Origin: Octopus sinensis
Lineage: Eukaryota
Length of the DNA stretch: 64,000 nt
NCBI RefSeq assembly: GCF_006345805.1
Contig: NC_043000.1
Location: 73,966,001-74,030,000, forward strand
Reading direction: 5' to 3'
How positions within the stretch are numbered: position 1 is the first letter of the stretch; each line of letters begins with the position of its first letter. Shown here one piece after another: positions 8,069 through 61,698 of this stretch. The notes beneath the pieces were generated by a model. That model worked only from the letters and a program-made list of their open reading frames with translations. It had not been told where the DNA came from and did no database searches. A program made the position numbers and the translations under genes.

Positions 8069-9992
8069 TCTCTCTCACCTCTGCCACTATACAGGTGCTT
8101 ACACTTATCAAGTATTCACCCTAAATTTACAGTACCTACTTGATCTATGTTGTCTTTTGGATTGGATTTTACATAACCACAACAACCTTTAATACTTGAT
8201 GAATAAAAAATGATACAAAGGATTAACACCAATTTCTCTCCCAAAGACATACCACTTCACACCGAAAATACATATATGATGTCTCTTATCCATAGGACTA
8301 CAGATTTCATTAGAAGGATCAGATGGGCCACTTACCATTCTGACAGTAGAGAAAAATACAGCTCAAACAGTAACCAGGACGACATGGTATATAAAAAAGT
8401 TTTTAAAAGTAGAAGAAACCTTCCACCGAATTATGCATTAGAGAATTTCGAGAAGGACATCCTCAAATTTATTAGAAAGATTAAAATTAGAAAACATAGC
8501 ACCATTATGAACAACCACTTGAGAAATTTAAAGTAGTTTATAAACTTGCTTAAAAATGAAGATAGTCTAATTGTAACTGCCGACAAAACCGGCAATTGGT
8601 ATAGATTAGACTATAATAATTATAAATCACTAATTATGAAGGAGCTACATTGAAAATATAAAGTTACATCAATAGAAAACCTGAAGGAAATTAACGGAAA
8701 AATAAAAGAAGTAATGACCAAGCTAGATCTACTAGAAAGGACGGAACCTCTCACCCCTCAGGAACTGTGGATTAACATTAAGGACCATAAAAAAGGATTC
8801 CCAGAAAACATAGGAGTAAGACTGATATGCCCAACTAAGTCAGATATAGGTAGACTTAGTAAAACTATTCTGCACTCAGTAATTCCCCGGATTAAGCCTC
8901 ACATTCCACTCAACATATGGGTTAACACTGATGATGTTCTAAATTGGTTCAACTCTATTACTGATAGGAACAATTACTCTTTTATACAATACGACATATC
9001 AAATTACTACGTGAGTATTTCCCCAATTTTATTGAATAAGGCCCTAATATATGCTCATAACCTTTCACTTATAGATTGAGAAAAAATTGATATAATACTC
9101 TTAGCTTGGAAGGCAGTAATTGAATATGAGGGTAAGCTTTGGACTAGGTCAGATACCCCTGATAACTTCAATGTGGCTATGGGCTTGAGCAATTCAGCTC
9201 AGGTGACTGACTTGGTTGGGGCCTTCTTACTTAAGAGGCTATTCTCAGAGATACCAGACCTTCAGGGAGGTCTATACAGAGATGACACACTTTTCATATA
9301 CCCCACAAATAATAAAAGCACCTTAGAAAGAATTAGAAAAAAGATTAGTCATTTCTTTAAATCATTTAATCTGAAACTAGAATTCATGACCAACACTAAG
9401 ATAGTTAATTTTTAGATGCTACATTAGACATAGATAAAGGCCTTCACTGCCCTTATAGAAAGCCAGAAGAAACCACAAGTTATATTGGCATATCATCTAA
9501 TCACCCGCCCTGTATAATTAATACCACAGTCCAAGCTGTTTCCGATAGACTATCTAAGTTATCATCAAACGAAAGTATTTTCAGTGATCATGCGCATCAC
9601 TATAATCAAGCCCTCTCTAATGCTGGGTACTCCCAGAAAATCTCTTTTGGTAAAAACTCATATGATAAACCACCTAAAACATCCATCATTAGTAAGGTTC
9701 CGTCACATAAACAAATTAAGGGTTCCAGAGCTAGTTCTTTAAATGGAGGTAGAGTAAATAGATCCAATAAAAGCACAGATACAACAAGCATAAATTCAAA
9801 TGAGGTTAAGATCAAAAAGCAAATAGAAAGAAATCACACCGATAAAAATTCAGTTAGAGAAAACCCTACCGATAGGAGTAACACAAATAATAAAGAATGC
9901 ATAAACATAAGAACTATAGATTATGTAACTATATATGGTATAACATACCATATAATGTAGCAGTTACAGGAAAATTATGCAGGAAATTATTA

Positions 9993-44759: not shown

Positions 44760-46310
44760 ATGACAATTATTCGGCAGCCATGATAAAACTCCGAGTTTCG
44801 GATGTCGGGGCGGAAACCCACGCCGCCATCTCTTCAGTTACCCAGCCATTGAAAAAAATGCTATGAAAATGACCGTTAAACAAAGAAAAATTACTGTGTG
44901 ATTGACCGTTATTAAGACAAAAGAGCTATTAGGATGACTGCTAAGTGAGGGGAGGGAGTAAATGTATGGGAGTAAAAATGTTCATAGTATTCGCGTAAAC
45001 GCACATGTCCATACCTACACATGCGTGCCTGCACATCAACGTACATGCGCCTATAAGTATATACTCATCCACCCTCACTTGAAACACACACATGCTCACC
45101 CACACATTCGCCAAAAAAATATATACATACCCACATACACGCTCACGCACACACACACGTCCACAAAAAAGGTTCATGCCCACGTCTATATACGCACATG
45201 CACAAGAAAAACAGGACTAAAGTCAAAATACAGAAAAATGTGTAAAAAAAGTGTAAAAAGTAAGCAATAAGAGTAAAACTTGTCTATATACGCACAAACT
45301 CGTATGCACGCACACACATACGTCTATATACGCGCATACCCGCACACGTCTATATACGCGCACACGCGCGCGCGCAAGAGAAAAAAAAGGTACACGTCTA
45401 TATACGCAGATGCAGAAGAAAAAACAGGGCTAAAAGCAAAATATAGAAAAATGTGTAAAAGAATGTGTAAAAAATATGTGATATGAGTAAAGCACGTCTA
45501 TATACGCGCATACTCACATGCATGCACACACACACACGTCTATATATGCACATACACGCACACAAGCACACATCCACACGCGTACACAAAAGATTCCATA
45601 TACACGTCTATATACACTCAGGGAAAATGCAGGGTGGAAGGTAGAATACAGAAAAAATATATGTAAAAAATATATGAGCAATAAACCTACAAAACAATAT
45701 CTCTTATAAATATGTAAAAAATATATAAATATATATATATAATATATAAGAAATATAAGTAAAAAGTATACATCAGGAAAAGTCCAAAACCATCATTTAT
45801 GAAGCCACTGTGGACTCTATATCCACTAAGGACACGGTTTCGACGAAGAAATACGTGGGCCTTACAAAGGTTCAATAATCACACCTTGAGCTTCAGGCAC
45901 TGGGATAAAAGGTAAACGACCAAATCATCCAGTCATATATGGTCCTTGAAAGATAAAGGTGTCAATTACAACATCCATTGGGAAATCTTAGCCAACTTTA
46001 AGCCTTACACCAACGGCAGTGGAAAATGCGGTCTTTGTGATGTGGAAAGATGGCTCATCTGGAAAAGCAGCTTAGACCCCCACCACATGTCTAAATTCAA
46101 AAACTAAACTTTTCGAAAGATGTCCATGTGTGGCTAAATATTTGTTACATTTTTGGTCCCCCACAGAGATTACAGATAGGACTTGCTATCTAAATTGTGT
46201 CCACGTACAAGCTTTTTTATCTCTCTATACTTTTTACTTATATATTTTATATCTATATTTTTATATATTTTTTACATATTTATAGAGATATTACGTTTAT
46301 ATATTTGTTT
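44760..46310. mobile_element. Naiad-like PLE 3' fragment (+ strand, ~45790-46310) fused head-to-head with an inverted 3' UTR/pLTR (- strand, ~44760-45760)
   Basis: KKYVGLT..RFNNHTLSFRHW...WEIL...KPYTNGSGKCGLC, homologous to 1200-1530. Segment 45695-45755 is an inverted copy of 46235-46292. Hammerhead on the minus strand. Confidence 0.72.
44782..44842 (-). ncRNA. Type I hammerhead ribozyme motif
   Basis: Minus strand reads GGTAA-CTGAAGA-GATG...CATCC-GAAA-CTC G GAG-TT-TTATC. Confidence 0.75.
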
Positions 46311-46809: not shown

Positions 46810-48030
46810 ATATAGTTATTTACTTCCATTTGTTTATTTATCTGTGTATTTTATTATGTTTTTAGTTTTGTTTATATTGTTACCAGTTTATAGGGATCTT
46901 CTTCTATCATATGATGTGGTGTGTGCTAGTGTTCCATTCCAGTTAACTATTCAGGCTAGGTTTATCTTCTATTATGTGTGTAGCTCCGTAATTTATCTAT
47001 TGTTGCATCTGTTCTATGTATGGACAAGATTTTAACTTTTATGTTGTTGAGTGAGCCCCCATGTTCTTGCTCGGTGTGTTGGTACAGAACCGATGAGCTC
47101 TTTTCTTCCTTAAGTTCTCTCCAATGTCCATTTACCCGCTCTCCTATGCTCCGTGCCGTTTCCCCTACGTATGTCGTTGTCTTGTTACTGCATCGTCCCT
47201 CTATACATCTTATACTATAGACTACATTTCTGGATTTACAGTTTGTTTGTGGGCTAAATCTACACACAGTACAGTTCCTATCCGTACAGGGGGTTCTACT
47301 AAAAGGGTAGGTCCTGCCGATTAGGGATTTGATAGGGTTGCCTGGCCTTTCAACAACCTTAATCCTTAGCTTAAGTTTGTCATGGGCCCTTCTAAAGCGG
47401 TACGCCAGTTCGCCTCTAGGGGTGGTGTCGACGAACATGACACTCTGGTATTTGTGGCTATCATATCAAGAGTTATCCTTCCCTATTTTCGTCTTAGTCC
47501 TTTCAATAGTATTCCATGATTTGCTCCTATAGAGTGGGAAAATCTCATTCCTATCATTACATAAGACAGTATCAAATTTCTTCATGGCTCCTTTGTATAC
47601 TCTGATCCTTTTTTATGGCTGTAACCTGAGAACTGCATGCGGTGACCGAAATGTTGTATGTGTCTCTTTAACTCTGTAGGCTCGCACATGCGGGACACGT
47701 TTCGCATTATTCTGACGAGGTTAGCCATCAAAATATTGAATTTGGCATTGTCCGCGATAGCTGAGTTCCGGTGGATCAAGTATTAGGAAGCCATAGGTTT
47801 GGCATAGTACGAATGAAGGATTCGGGTTTTATTATTCTCAGTTTCCAGCCAGAGTTATGTGTCTAGTACTGGTAGTCTATGGTTAGGGTGTTTAGTGGGG
47901 TAGTCTATCGTGACCTTAATACTCTGGTGGATTGAGTTCGCGAAATAAGATTAAGATTAATGTAAAAAATGAATAACGCTGAAGCAAAGTAACACCAAAT
48001 ATATAGTGCGTGTGTTTTTATTGGCTAAAG
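46315..48030 (-). mobile_element. Penelope-like element fragment, Nematis-like, with an inverted terminal segment
   Basis: ITIDYP...LPVLD, YAKPMAS, CTDRNCTVC...NCKSRNVVYSIRC...YVGETARSIGERVNGH (GIY-YIG). Segment 47941-48030 is an inverted copy of 46382-46470. Confidence 0.85.
46455..46514 (-). ncRNA. Partial hammerhead-like motif
   Basis: Minus strand reads CTGATGA-GGTCA...TGGCC-GAAA-TAAGATT. The core and stem II are good, but stem I pairing is not evident. Confidence 0.5.
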
Positions 48031-52880: not shown

Positions 52881-53739
52881 ATATATTTATATTAATGTGA
52901 CCCAGACACATAAAGCAGTTGAAGGTGAGGATGAGCTCTGCCAGGTGGAGAAGGCGGGGGTGTTGGGTGTGGGGTCAGGGTGACAGTCGAGGAAGTATTG
53001 GAGGGCTAAGAGACCGTCGTTGTGGGGAATACCTGTGTATAGGAATTTGATGTCCAAGGTGAGGAGGTGTGAGGGGCCGGGAGGGAAGGAAAAGGAATTG
53101 AAGAGGCGAACGGCGTGATTAGTGTCGTGTATGTGGGATGGGGGGCAGCAACTAGAGTGAACAGGATGCGGTCAAGTTATTTGGAAATGAGTTCGGTGGG
53201 ACAATTACAGGCAGAAACGATCGGGCAGCCAGGGTTGTTGGGTTTATGTATTTTGGGAAGGAAGTAGATGGTGGAAGTACAGCGTGTTTGGACGATGAGG
53301 TTGGTGGTGGGGGGGATATCAGAAGAGGAGATGAGGTCATGGATGGTGGAGGGCACTCGCTTTTGATAGGAGGTGGGGTCGGAGGGTAGGAGGTGATAGA
53401 AGAGGGATTTTGAAGTTGGCTGAGCACTTCCTCTCTGTATAGGTCTGTGCGCCACACCAACACTGCTCTACCTTTGCCTACCAGTTTGATGATAATGTTG
53501 TTGCAGCGACGGAAGTCGCCAAGGGCAATCAATTGAGCATGGGTGAGGTTGGCTTGGAGAGATTTTTTTTAAAAATTGAATCAGTTGATCAATGCATTGC
53601 AGTCGTGCACGAACAAGTCTAGGCTACTGAACTGGCCTGGAGGCAGTGTCCAGTTGGATGGGCGGCACCCCAGCTCCCAAAAACAATCCCAATTGTGTAG
53701 ATGTGTGGAAATGTATATATATATATACATGTATGTATG

Positions 53740-53771
<32 letters not shown>

Positions 53772-54038
53772 TAGCAATTAAGGACAACTACTTAATAAGG
53801 AAAACTTAACAAGAAATTGTCAGGTAGATAGCGTAAAAACCTCATAAGAGAAAAAATTTCGAAAATAATTATTTCTTATTGAACATATTAATTTATATAT
53901 AGAGAGCATTATACATACATGCCAGGAGGCATTCTACATACACGCCATACGCTAAGAGGGACAATCAGTCATTTCTACCAAAAATATTACTAATCCCACC
54001 GAATGCAATTTTTCAAAGAAAGACATTTAAAAATATAT

Positions 54039-56005
54039 AGACCTGTATCACAGTGATTTCATACTTACGTAATCATCAGCAGCCTGAATATACTATAAAT
54101 AAACAACGACCCTGCTTCGCTTAAGCCGATCAGCTAACTGATCAACATCAACGAAGCACATGGGTGGGTTTATATACTATATCCGGATGAATGGCAAACT
54201 TTTACGAATTGCATTTCGGGAGAGGAAAAGTTTTTTCGGAATAAAAATTTAGCAATTAAGGACAACTACTTAATAAGGAAAACTTAACAAGAAATTGTCA
54301 GGTAGATAGCGTAAAAACCTCATAAGAGAAAAAATTTCGAAAATAATTATTTCTTATTGAACATATTAATTTATATATAGAGGGCATTATACATACATGC
54401 CAGGAGGCATTCTACATACACGCCATACGCTAAGAGGGACAATCAGTCATTTCTACCAAAAATATTACTAATCCCACCGAATGCAATTTTTCAAAGAAAG
54501 ACATTTAAAAATATATAGACCTGTATCACAGTGATTTCATACTAACGTAATCATCAGCAGGCCTGAATATACTATAAATAAACAACGACCCTGCTTCGCT
54601 TAAGCCGATCAGCTAACTGATCAACATCAACGAAGCACATGGGTGGGTTTATATATACTATATCCGGATGAATGGCAAACTTTTACGAATTGCATTTCGG
54701 GAGAGGAAAAGTTTTTTCGGAATAAAAATTAGCAATTAAGGACAACTACTTAATAAGGAAAACTTAACAAGAAATTGTCAGGTAGATAGCGTAAAAACCT
54801 CATAAGAGAAAAAATTTCGAAAATAATTATTTCTTATTGAACATATTAATTTATATATAGAGGGCATTATACATACATGCCAGGAGGCATTCTACATACA
54901 CGCCATACGCTAAGAGGGACAATCAGTCATTTCTACCAAAAATATTACTATCCCACCGAATGCAATTTTTCAAAGAAAGACATTTAAAAATATATAGACC
55001 TGTATCACAGTGATTTCATACTTACGTAATCATCAGCAGGCCTGAATATACTATAAATAAACAACGACCCTGCTTCGCTTAAGCCGATCAGCTAACTGAT
55101 CAACATCAACGAAGCACATGGGTGGGTTTATATATACTATATCCGGATGAATGGCAAACTTTTACGAATTGCATTTCGGGAGAGGAAAAGTTTTTTCGGA
55201 ATAAAAATTTAGCAATTAAGGACAACTACTTAATAAGGAAAACTTAACAAGAAATTGTCAGGTAGATAGCGTAAAAACCTCATAAGAGAAAAAATTTCGA
55301 AAATAATTATTTCTTATTGAACATATTAATTTATATATAGAGGGCATTATACATACATGCCAGGAGGCATTCTACATACACGCCATACGCTAAGAGGGAC
55401 AATCAGTCATTTCTACCAAAAATATTACTAATCCCACCGAATGCAATTTTTCAAAGAAAGACATTTAAAAATATATAGACCTGTATCACAGTGATTTCAT
55501 ACTTACGTAATCATCAGCAGGCCTGAATATACTATAAATAAACAACGACCCTGCTTCGCTTAAGCCGATCAGCTAACTGATCAACATCAACGAAGCACAT
55601 GGGTGGGTTTATATATACTATATCCGGATGAATGGCAAACTTTTACGAATTGCATTTCGGGAGAGGAAAAGTTTTTTCGGAATAAAAATTTAGCAATTAA
55701 GGACAACTACTTAATAAGGAAAACTTAACAAGAAATTGTCAGGTAGATAGCGTAAAAACCTCATAAGAGAAAAAATTTCGAAAATAATTATTTCTTATTG
55801 AACATATTAATTTATATATAGAGGGCATTATACATACATGCCAGGAGGCATTCTACATACACGCCATACGCTAAGAGGGACAATCAGTCATTTCTACCAA
55901 AAATATTACTAATCCCACCGAATGCAATTTTTCAAAGAAAGACATTTAAAAATATATAGACCTGTATCACAGTGATTTCATACTTACGTAATCATCAGCA
56001 GGCCT
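54039..56005 (-). ncRNA. Five hammerhead ribozyme copies (54039-54085, 54517-54564, 54996-55043, 55477-55524, 55958-56005)
   Basis: Reverse complement of the motif at 56611-56658. Copies 1 and 2 carry single-base variants. Confidence 0.85.
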
Positions 56006-56610
56006 GAATATACTATAAATAAACAACGACCCTGCTTCGCTTAAGCCGATCAGCTAACTGATCAACATCAACGAAGCACATGGGTGGGTTTATATATACT
56101 ATATCCGGATGAATGGCAAACTTTTACGAATTGCATTTCGGGAGAGGAAAAGTATGAAATCACTGTGATACAGGTCTATATATTTTTAAATGTCTTTCTT
56201 TGAAAAATTGCATTCGGTGGGATTAGTAATATTTTTGGTAGAAATGACTGATTGTCCCTCTTAGCGTATGGCGTGTATGTAGAATGCCTCCTGGCATGTA
56301 TGTATAATGCCCTCTATATATAAATTAATATGTTCAATAAGAAATAATTATTTTCGAAATTTTTTCTCTTATGAGGTTTTTACGCTATCTACCTGACAAT
56401 TTCTTGTTAAGTTTTCCTTATTAAGTAGTTGTCCTTAATTGCTAAATTTTTATTCCGAAAAAACTTTTCCTCTCCCGAAATGCAATTCGTAAAAGTTTGC
56501 CATTCATCCGGATATAGTATATATAAACCCACCCATGTGCTTCGTTGATGTTGATCAGTTAGCTGATCGGCTTAAGCGAAGCAGGGTCGTTGTTTATTTA
56601 TAGTATATTC

Positions 56611-56658
56611 AGGCCTGCTGATGATTACGTAAGTATGAAATCACTGTGATACAGGTCT
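56611..56658 (+). ncRNA. Type I hammerhead ribozyme
   Basis: AGGCCTG-CTGATGA-TTAC GTAA GTAT-GAAA-TCAC T GTGA-TA-CAGGTCT: 7-bp stem I, GNRA-capped stem II, quasi-palindromic stem III, AUA triplet. Confidence 0.88.
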
Positions 56659-57091
56659 ATATATTTTTAAATGTCTTTCTTTGAAAAATTGCATTCGGTG
56701 GGATTAGTAATATTTTTGGTAGAAATGACTGATTGTCCCTCTTAGCGTATGGCGTGTATGTAGAATGCCTCCTGGCATGTATGTATAATGCCCTCTATAT
56801 ATAAATTAATATGTTCAATAAGAAATAATTATTTTCGAAATTTTTTCTCTTATGAGGTTTTTACGCTATCTACCTGACAATTTCTTGTTAAGTTTTCCTT
56901 ATTAAGTAGTTGTCCTTAATTGCTAAATTTTTATTCCGAAAAAACTTTTCCTCTCCCGAAATGCAATTCGTAAAAGTTTGCCATTCATCCGGATATAGTA
57001 TATATAAACCCACCCATGTGCTTCGTTGATGTTGATCAGTTAGCTGATCGGCTTAAGCGAAGCAGGGTCGTTGTTTATTTATAGTATATTC

Positions 57092-57139
57092 AGGCCTGCT
57101 GATGATTACGTAAGTATGAAATCACTGTGATACAGGTCT
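57092..57139 (+). ncRNA. Type I hammerhead ribozyme
   Basis: Identical to 56611-56658. Confidence 0.88.
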
Positions 57140-57572
57140 ATATATTTTTAAATGTCTTTCTTTGAAAAATTGCATTCGGTGGGATTAGTAATATTTTTGG
57201 TAGAAATGACTGATTGTCCCTCTTAGCGTATGGCGTGTATGTAGAATGCCTCCTGGCATGTATGTATAATGCCCTCTATATATAAATTAATATGTTCAAT
57301 AAGAAATAATTATTTTCGAAATTTTTTCTCTTATGAGGTTTTTACGCTATCTACCTGACAATTTCTTGTTAAGTTTTCCTTATTAAGTAGTTGTCCTTAA
57401 TTGCTAAATTTTTATTCCGAAAAAACTTTTCCTCTCCCGAAATGCAATTCGTAAAAGTTTGCCATTCATCCGGATATAGTATATATAAACCCACCCATGT
57501 GCTTCGTTGATGTTGATCAGTTAGCTGATCGGCTTAAGCGAAGCAGGGTCGTTGTTTATTTATAGTATATTC

Positions 57573-57620
57573 AGGCCTGCTGATGATTACGTAAGTATGA
57601 AATCACTGTGATACAGGTCT
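57573..57620 (+). ncRNA. Type I hammerhead ribozyme
   Basis: Identical to 56611-56658. Confidence 0.88.
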
Positions 57621-57767
57621 ATATATTTTTAAATGTCTTTCTTTGAAAAATTGCATTCGGTGGGATTAGTAATATTTTTGGTAGAAATGACTGATTGTCC
57701 CTCTTAGCGTATGGCGTGTATGTAGAATGCCTCCTGGCATGTATGTATAATGCCCTCTATATATAAA

Positions 57768-57834
<67 letters not shown>

Positions 57835-58529
57835 TGTTTATATATATACTGTATATATTATATATATATACTTTATCGCCACGTGTTCCTTGACCTCTCT
57901 CTCTAACTAACCCTATCTCTCTCCCTGTTTCTCTATGTCACCCTCTTCCCATAACCATCATCGCCATATCTCTCTCCCTAGGTTTCTCTATGCCCCCCCC
58001 TTCCATAACCATCATCGCCATATATAAAAGAGCGATCGCATTATCGTTAACCCCACTCGCTTCAAAATATCTAAAGACGAAATACGCACAGATCATGAAT
58101 GGCTAAAGCTAAGTGAATTGTTCAACCTCGCTACGACTACCTTCTATCTTGCACTTATCTTTATTCTTTCACTATTCTTCAATTTCCATCTCATTGTATT
58201 GTTCCTCATTCTTTCAGTATTCCCTCATTACCCTGTCTAGCTCAAACATTTTTTTTTTTTTTTTTTCGTTTAGTCTTGTCTCCCGGTTCACAGCCACTCT
58301 GATTTTTCAAACCCATTTGCTAGCTCCGATTTAACAGAACCTTACTAACCTACGGTGCACCCGCCCTCCCGCCCCCACCACACATGCCGGAAGTTCCTAT
58401 TCTTTGCCATTCCGGGGTTGCTTCCCATGAAGACTGCAAATGCTCTCACCATCCCTACCCCTCCCTACCCCTAGTCTCGACCTATGTAAGGTAATGTTCA
58501 TACAGTGCAAAATATGAAAGGCTAGTGTT

Positions 58530-61500
58530 ATGCAGGTTGTACTGAAGGCTACTTTACTACTTCATTTCTTGCACATGAATTCTGCCAAATGCGAGCTTTC
58601 TTTTCAGGTACACGAAGCTACTGTCCACCGTCCCAGGGTCTCTAGAGCCCATGCCTCCCACACCCTCAGGGTTGGCACCCTCAGCGTTGGCACTCTGAAA
58701 GGTAGGTCTGGTGAGATAGTCGAGATGCTTGAACGGAGATGTGTGCATATATGTTGCATGCAAGAAATAAGGTGGAGAGGAGGATCAGCTAGGTTCCTCA
58801 CAGGCAAGGAACGCAGGTACAAGATTTTCTGGGCAGGGAACACTGACGGGGTTGGTGGCGTGGGTATACTTATCGCTGAGAAATGGGTAGATAAAGTAAT
58901 TGAGGTAATCAGAGTATGTGACAGAATACTTAAGATTAGATTAGTGCTTCATCATAGTTTAGCAACCATTATATCAGCCTATGCTCCTCAGTCGGGGCTA
59001 CCCGATGGACAGAAAGACCGATTCTATGACACTCTACTGCAGACTACCTCGTTGACGAACGACAGAGACCTTATCTTTGTGGCTGGTGACTTCAATGGTC
59101 ACGTTGGACGACATGCTGGGGGCTTCCATGGCGTACATGGAGGCTATGGCTATGGCTCCCGAAACGAGGAGGGAACCAGGCTGCTGGAGTTCTGCGATGC
59201 AAATAATCTTATGATTTGCAACACTAACTTCAGGAAACCTACCAGCCACCTAGTCACTTACCGATCGGGCCAACATACCAGCCAAATTGACTACATCCTT
59301 GCAAGGCAAAGGGAGAGATGGCTGCTTATAAATGCCAAAACCTTCCCAGGGGAAGAATGTACCCCACAACATAGACTGGTAGTTAGTGACTTTAGGATCA
59401 GGACTAGGAGGACAACCAGAAGACGACCAATATGGAGAAGAAGGATCTGGAAGCTTAAAGATCCTGCAAATGGACAGAGATTTAGAGACATATTACTTGA
59501 AGCCTCTGACGAAGTAGAAGGGGATAGAGCATCACAGGGGGTAGAAGACAGCTGGACGTTTCTAAGGGACAACCTGCTGAGAGCCACTGACCAGATCTGT
59601 GGATGGTGCAAAGTCCCCTCTCGACCTAGAATAACGTGGTGGTGGAACAATATTGTAGACAGGGCTATTAGAGAAAAGAGACAGGCTTGGAAGGTCTGGA
59701 AAAATGGGGGTAGCAGGGAATTGTATCAGACTGCCAAAAGAGAAGCTAAGAGACAGGTTTATTTAGCCAGAGGGGAAGCAGATAAGAAAAAATTTGCCAA
59801 TGTTCTGCGCCGTGAGGACCAAAGACTGGAGGTGTTTCGCGTTGCAAGACAGTGTGTGAGAGAGAATCGTGATGTGGTAGGAGAGAAGTGTGTTCGCATG
59901 GAAGATGGTTCACTTGCGCTAAATGAGGATGCAAAGAGAGAGGTTTGGCGATGCCACTATGAAAGTTTGCTGAATAAAGAAAATGAATGGGATAAAGAGA
60001 GTCTGCCGAATGTTGACCCAACAGAGGGACCAGCTATCCGAGTTGATAGTTCCGTGGTAGCTAAGGCAATTAGAAGCATGAAGAGAGGAAAAGACCCAAG
60101 CCCATCAGCAATCACTGCAGAGATGCTCAAAATGTCTGGTAGTGTCGGCTATAGCCTAGTCACCTATATAGTTAATCAGGTGGATACACAAAGGAGCCAT
60201 ACCCAATGACTGGTGTAGCAGCATAATAGTCAACTGCTACAAAGGTAAAGGTGACGCCCTAGATACAAATAACTACAGAGGTATCAAGCTGTTGGATCAG
60301 GTGATGAAGGTTACGGAGAGGGTCATAGCCCAACTAATTAGAGAGAGAGTTAGTTTAGATGAGATGCAGTTTGGGTTTGTGCCAGGGAAAAGTACTACTG
60401 ATGCTATATTCCTGGTAAGGCATCTGCAGGAGAAATACCTAGCCAAAGATAAGTCCCTGTACCTGGCTTTTGTTGACATGGAGAAAGCCTTCGACAGGGT
60501 CCCCCGATCCCTTATCTGGTGGGCAATGAGGAAACTAGGGATAGATGAATGGTTAGTGAGAGCTGTGCAGGCCATGTATAGGGACGCTGCTAGTAGGGTG
60601 AGGGTTGGAAACGAGTACAGTGAAGAATTCCGGGTAGAGGTAGGGGTCCACCAAGGCTCAGTACTCAGCCCCCTCCTATTTATCATAGTCCTCCAGGCAA
60701 TAACGGAGGAATTCAAGACAGGATGCCCTTGGGAGCTCCTCTATGCTGATGACCTTGCTCTAATTGCTGAGTCGCTATCAGAACTGGAGGAGAAGTTTCA
60801 GGTGTGGAAACAAGGATTAGAATCGAAGGGCCTCAGAGTCAATCTAGCTAAAACCAAAGTCGTAATCAGTAGGAAGGTAGACAAATCACAAACGCCTTCA
60901 GGTAGATGGCCCTGCTCGATCTGTAGAAAAGGTGTAGGTAGAAACTCTATAAGATGCACCAAGTGTAAGCTATGGACACATAAGAGGTGCAGCAATGTCA
61001 AAGGAAGGCTAACTAGGAAAATAGTTTTTGTCTGTGGCAGATGCTCAGGAACAATAAACACTGAAAATGCTCTGAGACCAACTTCCGTCACTTTCCAGGG
61101 AGAAAAACTAGAAATAGTTGATAGTTTCCGTTACCTAGGTGACCAAGTCAGCAGCGGGGGCGGGTGTGCTGAAAGTGTAACTGCTAGAGTAAGAATAGCT
61201 TGGGCAAAGTTCAGAGAGCTCTTACCTCTGCTGGTGACAAAAGGCCTCTCGCACAGAGTGAAAAGCAGACTGTATGATGCGTGTGTACGAACAGCCATGC
61301 TACATGGCAGTGAAACTTGGGCCGTGACTGCTGAGGATATGCGTAAGCTCGCAAGAAATGAAGCCAGTATGCTCCGATGGATGTGTAATGTCAGTGTTCA
61401 TAATCGACAGAGTGTAAGTACCTTGAGAGAAAAGCTGGACCTAAGAAGCATCAGTTGTGGTGTGCAAGAGAGACGATTGCGCTGGTATGGTCATGTGGCG

Positions 61501-61698
61501 AGAATGGATGAAGATAGTGGTGTGAAAAAGTCCCACACCCTAGCGGTTGAGGGAACCTGTGGAAGAGGCAGACCCAGGAAAACCTGGGACGAGGTGGTGA
61601 AGCACGACCTTCGAACTTTAGGTCTCACTGAGGAAATGACTAGAGACCGAGTCCTCTGGAAGTGTGCTGTGCGCGAGAAGACCCGGCAGGACAAGTGA
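58530..61698 (+). CDS. RTE ORF: APE endonuclease, RT and PHD-like finger, with one +1 frameshift at ~60182
   Basis: LRVGTLSVGTL, QEIRW, SAYAPQ, GDFNGH, SQIDYIL, QHRLV (APE). QFGF, FVDMEKAFD, GVHQGSVLSP, YADD, FRYLG (RT). CAGGTGGATAC versus CAGGTGATAC in the 4951 copy shows one extra G. Confidence 0.92.

Follow-up and report, generated by a model that had tools for sequence, protein, structure and literature searches.

The tandem array at positions 53772-57767 of the window (i.e., the whole stretch of 64,000 nucleotides of Octopus sinensis DNA that was analysed) is probably a single two-armed insertion into (TA)n. It was likely made by a reverse transcriptase/endonuclease of a Penelope-like element (PLE), supplied in trans, which likely ran several times round one circular 481-nt RNA. 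The two parts of this reading differ in strength: mobilisation by PLE machinery is very likely and a circular template fairly likely. The sequence itself shows the two arms, the fixed ends, the insertion into (TA)n and, at each locus, the descent from a single haplotype. The family is real, young and non-LTR retrozyme-like, and its anatomy supports PLE-driven, probably circle-templated integration. Elements of this class have been described before, and one more family in another host would be ordinary; what is new, and open to testing, is the anatomy of the insertions.

The stretch is made up of a non-coding unit of 481 bp (33% GC, longest stop-free frame of 54 aa), the copies of which are 99.4-100% identical, with homopolymer indels among them. 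The original prediction of near-identical, non-coding units of about 480 bp inserted in (TA)n is thus borne out, both ends being flanked by (TA)n tracts (Table 1). The repeat of about 8.4 units is real as well; however, it consists of two back-to-back arms on opposite strands, not of a single head-to-tail run, and the head-to-head structure and the fixed ends had been missed. At each outer end, the ribozyme strand has its 3' end and passes into (TA)n. No tRNA was found in the 64-kb window, and the right flank of the array has no match among the loci compared.

Table 1. Features of the array and of its immediate surroundings (unit positions are numbered from the predicted hammerhead cut).
Feature	Position	Strand	Remarks
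Left arm	53772..56153	-	4.95 units in hammerhead-sense orientation; 3' (outer) end at unit position 274 (site B)
Right arm	56150..57767	+	3.36 units; begins at unit position 461; 3' (outer) end at unit position 154-155 (site A)
Head-to-head junction	56150..56153	.	4-base overlap AAGT; 5' ends of both arms (unit 293 to unit 461)
Tail of ~120 nt (unit ~156-274)	53772..53891	-	At the left outer end, without counterpart at the other end
Reference monomer	56652..57132	+	Predicted cut to next predicted cut, 481 nt; predicted circle
Left (TA)n target tract	53714..53773	.	
Right (TA)n target tract	57758..57870	.	
Minus-strand cores	54079, 54557, 55036, 55517, 55998	-	Sequence pattern
Plus-strand cores	56618, 57099, 57580	+	Sequence pattern
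Core-less partial hammerhead	56150-56170		
Type I hammerhead motif, right arm	56611..56658	+	Predicted cut after A56651; more copies at 57092-57139 and 57573-57620
Type I hammerhead motif, left arm	55958..56005	-	Predicted cut after 55965; others after 55484, 55003, 54524 and 54046
Decayed PLE-type fragment	52910..53570	-	Neighbour, outside the element; no match to unit

Of the eight CUGAUGA...GAAA...AUA cores in the array, five belong to the minus strand and the other three to the plus strand. Stem I (AGGCCUG/CAGGUCU) has 7 bp in seven of them, the copy at 54079 lacking one C, and resumes beyond a 2-nt bulge. Stem II opens with a U.U mismatch, followed by three pairs and closed by a GUAA loop; the palindrome AUCAC-U-GUGAU makes up stem III, and the triplet is AUA. 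A complete type I hammerhead in each unit had been announced: stems I-III accompany all eight cores, but the 7-bp stem I is not universal and one partial copy has no core. The AUA triplet and the cut predicted after 56651 had been correctly placed. As a monomer, stem III would form 4 bp with a 3-nt loop, and as a dimer 5+5 bp (predicted homodimer, -10.1 kcal/mol). It is not predicted to form alone, and the predicted catalytic fold lies 2 kcal/mol above a core-occluding fold (-11.8 vs. -13.8). The monomer is predicted to be strongly folded (z of -7.1 when linear, -5.3 when circular); the reverse complement also folds well (z of -4.9), so folding alone cannot choose the strand.

The covariance-model check that had been suggested gave no support: Rfam reports nothing at all, hammerheads included, over the whole window at gathering score, and five weak unrelated matches but no hammerhead over 56400-56900 at E<=10. 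Since the Rfam models gave no score, the hammerhead call is based on the core sequence and on comparison. Depending on the family, stem I reads GGCCUG/CAGGUC, GUUCUG/CAGAAC, UUGCA/UGCAG or GAGUCA/UGGCU, all paired; four stem I sequences that keep their pairing around an invariant core argue that the motif is under selection. Compensatory changes preserve the hammerhead in sister families (67-97% identical), and stem pairs are lost in old solo copies (e.g., L162 and L167).

The exact 33-base core of the young subfamily occurs 1,343 times in the 2.72-Gb genome. Sister subfamilies, in which the mismatched U is replaced by A or G, account for 780 cores genome-wide. Further core matches number 1,261, mostly from a second family (335 of 502 aligned columns identical to the unit), and 89 more include an older third family. 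The reversed-pattern control gave 0 in each case, which sets chance aside for the 1,343 exact cores. The young subfamily would amount to about 400 loci (extrapolated from 30 clusters per 100 cores), on many contigs, with arrays of up to ~19 units (L036) and near-monomer insertions (L071, L073, L075). The idea of a recently amplified, dispersed family is supported. Several features of non-LTR retrozymes are recognisable in the sequence: non-coding tandem units a few hundred bp long and with less than 50% GC, a type I hammerhead in each of them, dispersal over multiple loci and a highly self-paired monomer. The unit had been called large for the class; 481 bp lies inside the range of 51-972 bp given for the consensus lengths of retrozyme families (10.64898/2026.07.22.740005). 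Solo hammerheads, examined in the search for a helper, belong to the older non-coding sister family or are more distant motifs, with no PLE protein match. Five loci (L144, L150, L156, L159, L162) hold remoter hammerhead families with the same stem III and otherwise no similarity to the unit; in four of the five, (TA)n lies 150-280 nt past the predicted cut.

The layout of the array recurs across the genome. Among the 21 best-scoring young loci, which favour long arrays because they were picked by score, 20 are head-to-head. Each of these 20 has one outer end near unit position 155, i.e., at site A, and its second outer end near 274, i.e., at site B. Both arms are multimeric and of non-integer length. 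The inner junction is variable, with few-base overlaps or fillers; the outer ends are constant. All 21 loci have (TA)n at both ends and nothing but unit sequence between, and the check for target-site duplications found both ends within (TA)n. An unselected sample was taken from the first 100 cores listed (contig C1), which form 30 clusters by hand count, 29 of them examined: 20 are two-armed, 7 single-armed and 2 unresolved. In this sample 13 clusters have cores on both strands and L022 is a single arm; the 15 others, examined individually, comprise seven with a short second arm (all A+B), six with a single arm, one running into a gap and one fragment. About 70% of young-subfamily insertions are thus two-armed. 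Minus precedes plus in all 43 two-strand clusters counted by hand in three lists of first 100 cores. The only plus-then-minus pair (L199) reads as two neighbouring insertions. At L026 and L192, a complete two-arm insertion is found twice side by side, with (TA)n between.

The pairing of one A end with one B end is nearly strict. It holds in 20/20 of the best-scoring young loci, in 7/7 of the unselected clusters with a short second arm, in 21/22 two-arm insertions of the sister subfamilies and, at homologous sites, in 9/10 insertions of family 2, i.e., in 57 of the 59 two-arm insertions with both ends read, inside (TA)n; L070 and L134 are the exceptions. The sister set comprises 31 insertions in 29 loci, of which 8 are single-armed and one is out of range; it was counted by reading and includes two arrays split by later insertions and two for which an internal indel ended the alignment early. 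If each end chose its site independently, A+B would be expected in about half of the cases (p of 6e-13, for 50/52 insertions). Contigs of sequencing run X3, from another organism, enter (TA)n at 56806 and 56928, i.e., at the same two sites.

An inverted 5'-truncated copy, a one-ended tail between two fixed sites and a (TA)n target are thus combined in these insertions. PLEs are described with an inverted 5'-truncated copy, a tail of 30-40 bp that is often one-ended, and a bias for (TA)n (PMC8557442). Since back-to-back arms and two fixed ends match these marks, copying by a PLE enzyme is likely. An artefactual origin of the inversion, by misassembly or by fold-back in the library, is very improbable, and so is LINE-type twin priming. 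Long-read assemblies do mishandle tandem repeats, as the homopolymer indels of the array illustrate, and RTE-type LINEs are abundant in the window. LINE-type twin priming gives the same polarity. Against both stand the unequal arms with different flanks, the two fixed internal sites shared by three related families, the contig of the independent run X3 that crosses an opposite-strand joint and, for twin priming, the absence of poly(A) or any other LINE 3' end. The LINE at 58518-61698 (+) of the window, presumably of RTE type, encodes an endonuclease, an RT and a PHD-like finger and is split in two frames.

The involvement of PLEs had been proposed, and a decayed PLE noted beside the array. Such a fragment does lie on the left, and its frame at 53152-53568 (-), which we take to be PLE-derived on the basis of its motifs, has 70% DNA identity to a PLE copy in L065 and no Pfam match. 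It shares no sequence with the unit, which discards it as parent, and PLEs abound in the genome, in which two PLE queries gave 12,159 and 7,250 first-look candidates, respectively. PLE mobilisation is thus supported by the anatomy of the insertions and not by this neighbour. It is also very doubtful that the unit is the pLTR of an autonomous PLE and that the loci are truncated copies of it. The ends do behave as in PLEs, and Xenopus retrozymes resemble pLTRs (10.64898/2026.07.22.740005). However, a frame scan of 29 loci found no PLE frame attached to the unit, nor does any lie within ~1.5 kb in 30 more loci searched with six PLE protein probes, and the 21 young loci hold unit sequence only, from (TA)n to (TA)n. 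An RT plus GIY-YIG frame in cis, which would mark an autonomous PLE, is absent from the unit and from the examined loci. The search that had been proposed for copy number and for links to PLE frames yields hundreds of insertions, and at no examined locus is the unit the pLTR of an autonomous PLE. Two apparent pLTR pairs (L061, L062) are arrays split by later LINE-type insertions, the inner frames of which read as LINE-type.

The unit has no similarity to the two PLE families compared (a Neptune-type one and a second RT/GIY-YIG family). The young Neptune-type PLE, assigned to its clade by the CX4CXXC motif, occurs at L123-L132 (e.g., L124:3511-5856 +) and at 33771-34600 of the window, with a 782-aa RT/GIY-YIG frame. 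This autonomous element follows the layout of the 481-bp insertions: it has (TA)n ends, inverted second arms and an AC-rich tail of ~48 nt, with one end of each kind in 3/4 two-arm loci (L132 breaks the pairing). No standard hammerhead core was found by pattern in its 3' UTR. This family is a candidate helper. The second PLE family (window 46965-47465 (-) and 46508 (-); L170-L183) has an RT with a C-terminal GIY-YIG, (TA)n ends and a CUGAUGA...GAAA motif ~370-450 nt past the stop. At 44837 (-) of the window lies a minimal hammerhead-like motif, the stem III of which is palindromic; it probably marks a further PLE end. More decayed PLE-like fragments, mutually related, are found at 1378-2470, 8654-9960 and 36791-38421; by their motifs we take them to be Hydra-like.

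The nature of the template can be approached through the variants of the units. Within the 21 young loci, divergence per site is 0.0014 between units of one locus vs. 0.0067 between loci. Twelve variants are private to one locus and present in >=80% of its units (e.g., T428C in 13/13 units, A19T in 18/18), "private" being relative to 21 of roughly 400 loci. Private variants are found on both arms in 11/11 testable cases of the young subfamily, 18/18 of the sister subfamilies and 6/7 of family 2. Since they occupy units of both arms, each insertion goes back to the haplotype of one unit, an argument for a single monomer template copied by rolling circle. The predicted cut is crossed scar-free in 257 of 263 junctions; a ligation scar, looked for at this position, was not found. 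Single haplotype and scar-free junctions are most simply explained by a circle.

One locus does not fit. L022:3249-9641 is a single-armed array of 13 units, with two haplotypes in a repeated 5-unit block, a pattern that one monomer circle cannot give; it fits a multimeric template, a template switch, local duplication or misassembly. This locus is among the arguments for a linear template, i.e., PLE machinery that copies an uncut linear multimer, or jumps between templates on a linear monomer, with a dispensable hammerhead and no circle. We consider this rather unlikely. It would suit the ordered mix of two haplotypes in L022, the weak predicted ribozyme fold and the insertion of a PLE in vitro without hammerhead activity (PMC11167929). 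Linear multimer copying alone, however, does not bring a new variant into all units of the two arms, and jumps over a cut end should scar the junctions, yet 257/263 are clean; arrays of ~19 units (L036) and the conservation of core and stems across families also speak against it. A linear multimer keeps some probability because "private" rests on a small sample and PLE insertion in vitro needed no ribozyme activity.

Growth in place by unequal crossover, after a PLE-type insertion of a monomer or pLTR (as proposed in 10.64898/2026.07.22.740005), is improbable here. The 5-unit block of L022, the near-monomer insertions and the duplicates of whole insertions at L026 and L192, which indicate that local duplication occurs, agree with it. 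It is opposed by private variants on both inverted arms, by multimeric, non-integer arms with variable inner junctions and fixed outer ends, and by young loci that already reach 19 units. Rolling-circle copying thus stays the preferred reading; the points against it are the null result of Rfam, the weak predicted catalytic fold, L022, the exceptions L070, L134 and L132, the lack of shared sequence with the two PLE families compared as helpers, the normal insertion of hammerhead mutants and the like start sites of both strands with a PLE protein (PMC11167929), and the Xenopus dimers that did not cleave (10.64898/2026.07.22.740005).

The private variants have a bias of their own: in the 21 young loci, 9/12 locus-private fixed variants are A>G or T>C vs. 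11/81 single-unit differences (p of 3e-5). The excess is weaker in older subfamilies (10/25 and 3/7). It may reflect polymerase errors or editing carried into DNA; the singletons include assembly errors.

Contigs of four sequencing runs, putatively of RNA, were also aligned to one unit. A>G or T>C accounts for 33/40 variant places in run X2 and 24/26 in run X3 (two studies of one organism), vs. 13/37 genomic variant sites (Fisher p of 3e-5 and 5e-6, respectively). Thirty-one of the 34 A>G/T>C sites listed are found in less than 3% of ~270 genomic units, and four of six other contig changes are common genomic variants. This pattern is absent from runs X6 and X14. An opposite-strand joint is crossed by one X3 contig, which has 21 differences. 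Joints stepping back by 481 are found in three of the four runs, and a circle or a tandem gives the same signal. The A>G/T>C pattern could correspond to A-to-I hyper-editing of read-through hairpins from two-arm loci. The contigs hint at transcription through the arrays and are neutral with respect to a circle.

These data would fit the following scheme: (i) arrays would be transcribed as multimers; (ii) the hammerhead would cut the multimers to monomers, probably aided by the pairing of two palindromic stems III; (iii) monomers would be ligated into circles; (iv) a PLE protein would nick both (TA)n strands and prime from each 3' end, at unit ~155 on one and ~274 on the other; (v) each cDNA would travel round the circle over a variable length, and the two would be joined at a short overlap, giving a head-to-head array with a one-end tail. 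As a side effect, long double-stranded RNA would form wherever a two-arm locus is read through, i.e., at most loci. Still more specifically, and tentatively, the loci might record a dimeric PLE enzyme that primes both (TA)n strands on one ribozyme-made RNA circle, from start sites ~120 nt apart. If true, retrozyme arrays arise full-length by rolling-circle reverse transcription, the inverted copy plus tail of PLEs results from asymmetric priming on the two strands, and the majority of insertions start as long hairpins, the transcripts of which are A-to-I hyper-edited.

Copying of such repeats from a circular RNA by PLE enzymes has long been proposed. Until now, however, arguments on the identity of the retrozyme helper and on the use of circles as templates have relied on co-occurrence and on likeness of sequence, and according to a 2020 review retrozyme repeats show no motif indicating a helper (PMC7761336). 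Here, the PLE end signature and a single founding haplotype are borne by the insertions, which also name two start positions testable in the existing in vitro PLE assay. Among the papers listed by searches of openly available full texts, none deals with cephalopod retrozymes or with inverted, tailed retrozyme insertions, and a word search of the main texts of PMC7229834, PMC7761336 and 10.64898/2026.07.22.740005 found no description of such insertions.

The 481-bp family resembles the metazoan non-LTR retrozymes of coral, mussel and axolotl (PMC7229834) in its tandem, low-GC, non-coding units with one type I hammerhead each, its well-folded monomer and its many dispersed loci; axolotl HHR_Amex2 likewise has a U.U mismatch where helix II begins. 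It differs in that circles and cleavage were demonstrated for those, whereas they are predicted for the 481-bp family, and in its head-to-head arms and fixed paired ends, which have no description in the text consulted (the word "inverted" is absent from the main text). With the retrozymes regarded as non-autonomous PLE derivatives (10.64898/2026.07.22.740005) it shares the proposed helper class and a length within range. That work, in its available text, argues from co-occurrence and pLTR homology and proposes local expansion by unequal crossover, without the words "tail", "junction" or "orientation"; the present argument comes from insertion anatomy, the unit having no pLTR homologue in the two PLE families compared. 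The same work reports that 8/9 predicted Xenopus retrozyme dimers did not cleave. The palindromic helix III suits a double hammerhead, as in the dimeric newt satellite 2-type hammerheads, although it is longer than theirs (PMC4209133, PMC7229834).

The closest likeness in anatomy is with the EN+ PLEs (Neptune, Naiad, Poseidon; PMC8557442, PMC11167929), which also have an inverted 5'-truncated copy, a one-end tail, a (TA)n target and ends downstream of the hammerhead. However, the 481-bp unit has no RT/GIY-YIG frame and its tail is of ~120 nt vs. 30-40 nt. In vitro, a purified PLE protein introduces nicks in both strands and extends them, and its synthesis begins at two sites within the RNA, which delimit the tail; hammerhead mutants inserted normally, and no RNA-seq ends were reported at the cut (PMC11167929). 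With this protein, from Anolis, the two strands are alike in start site in vitro, unlike the near-strict one-of-each ends of the 481-bp family. The origin of PLE inverted copies and tails is listed as unexplained (PMC8557442), and the near-strict pairing of ends described here bears on how both are formed.
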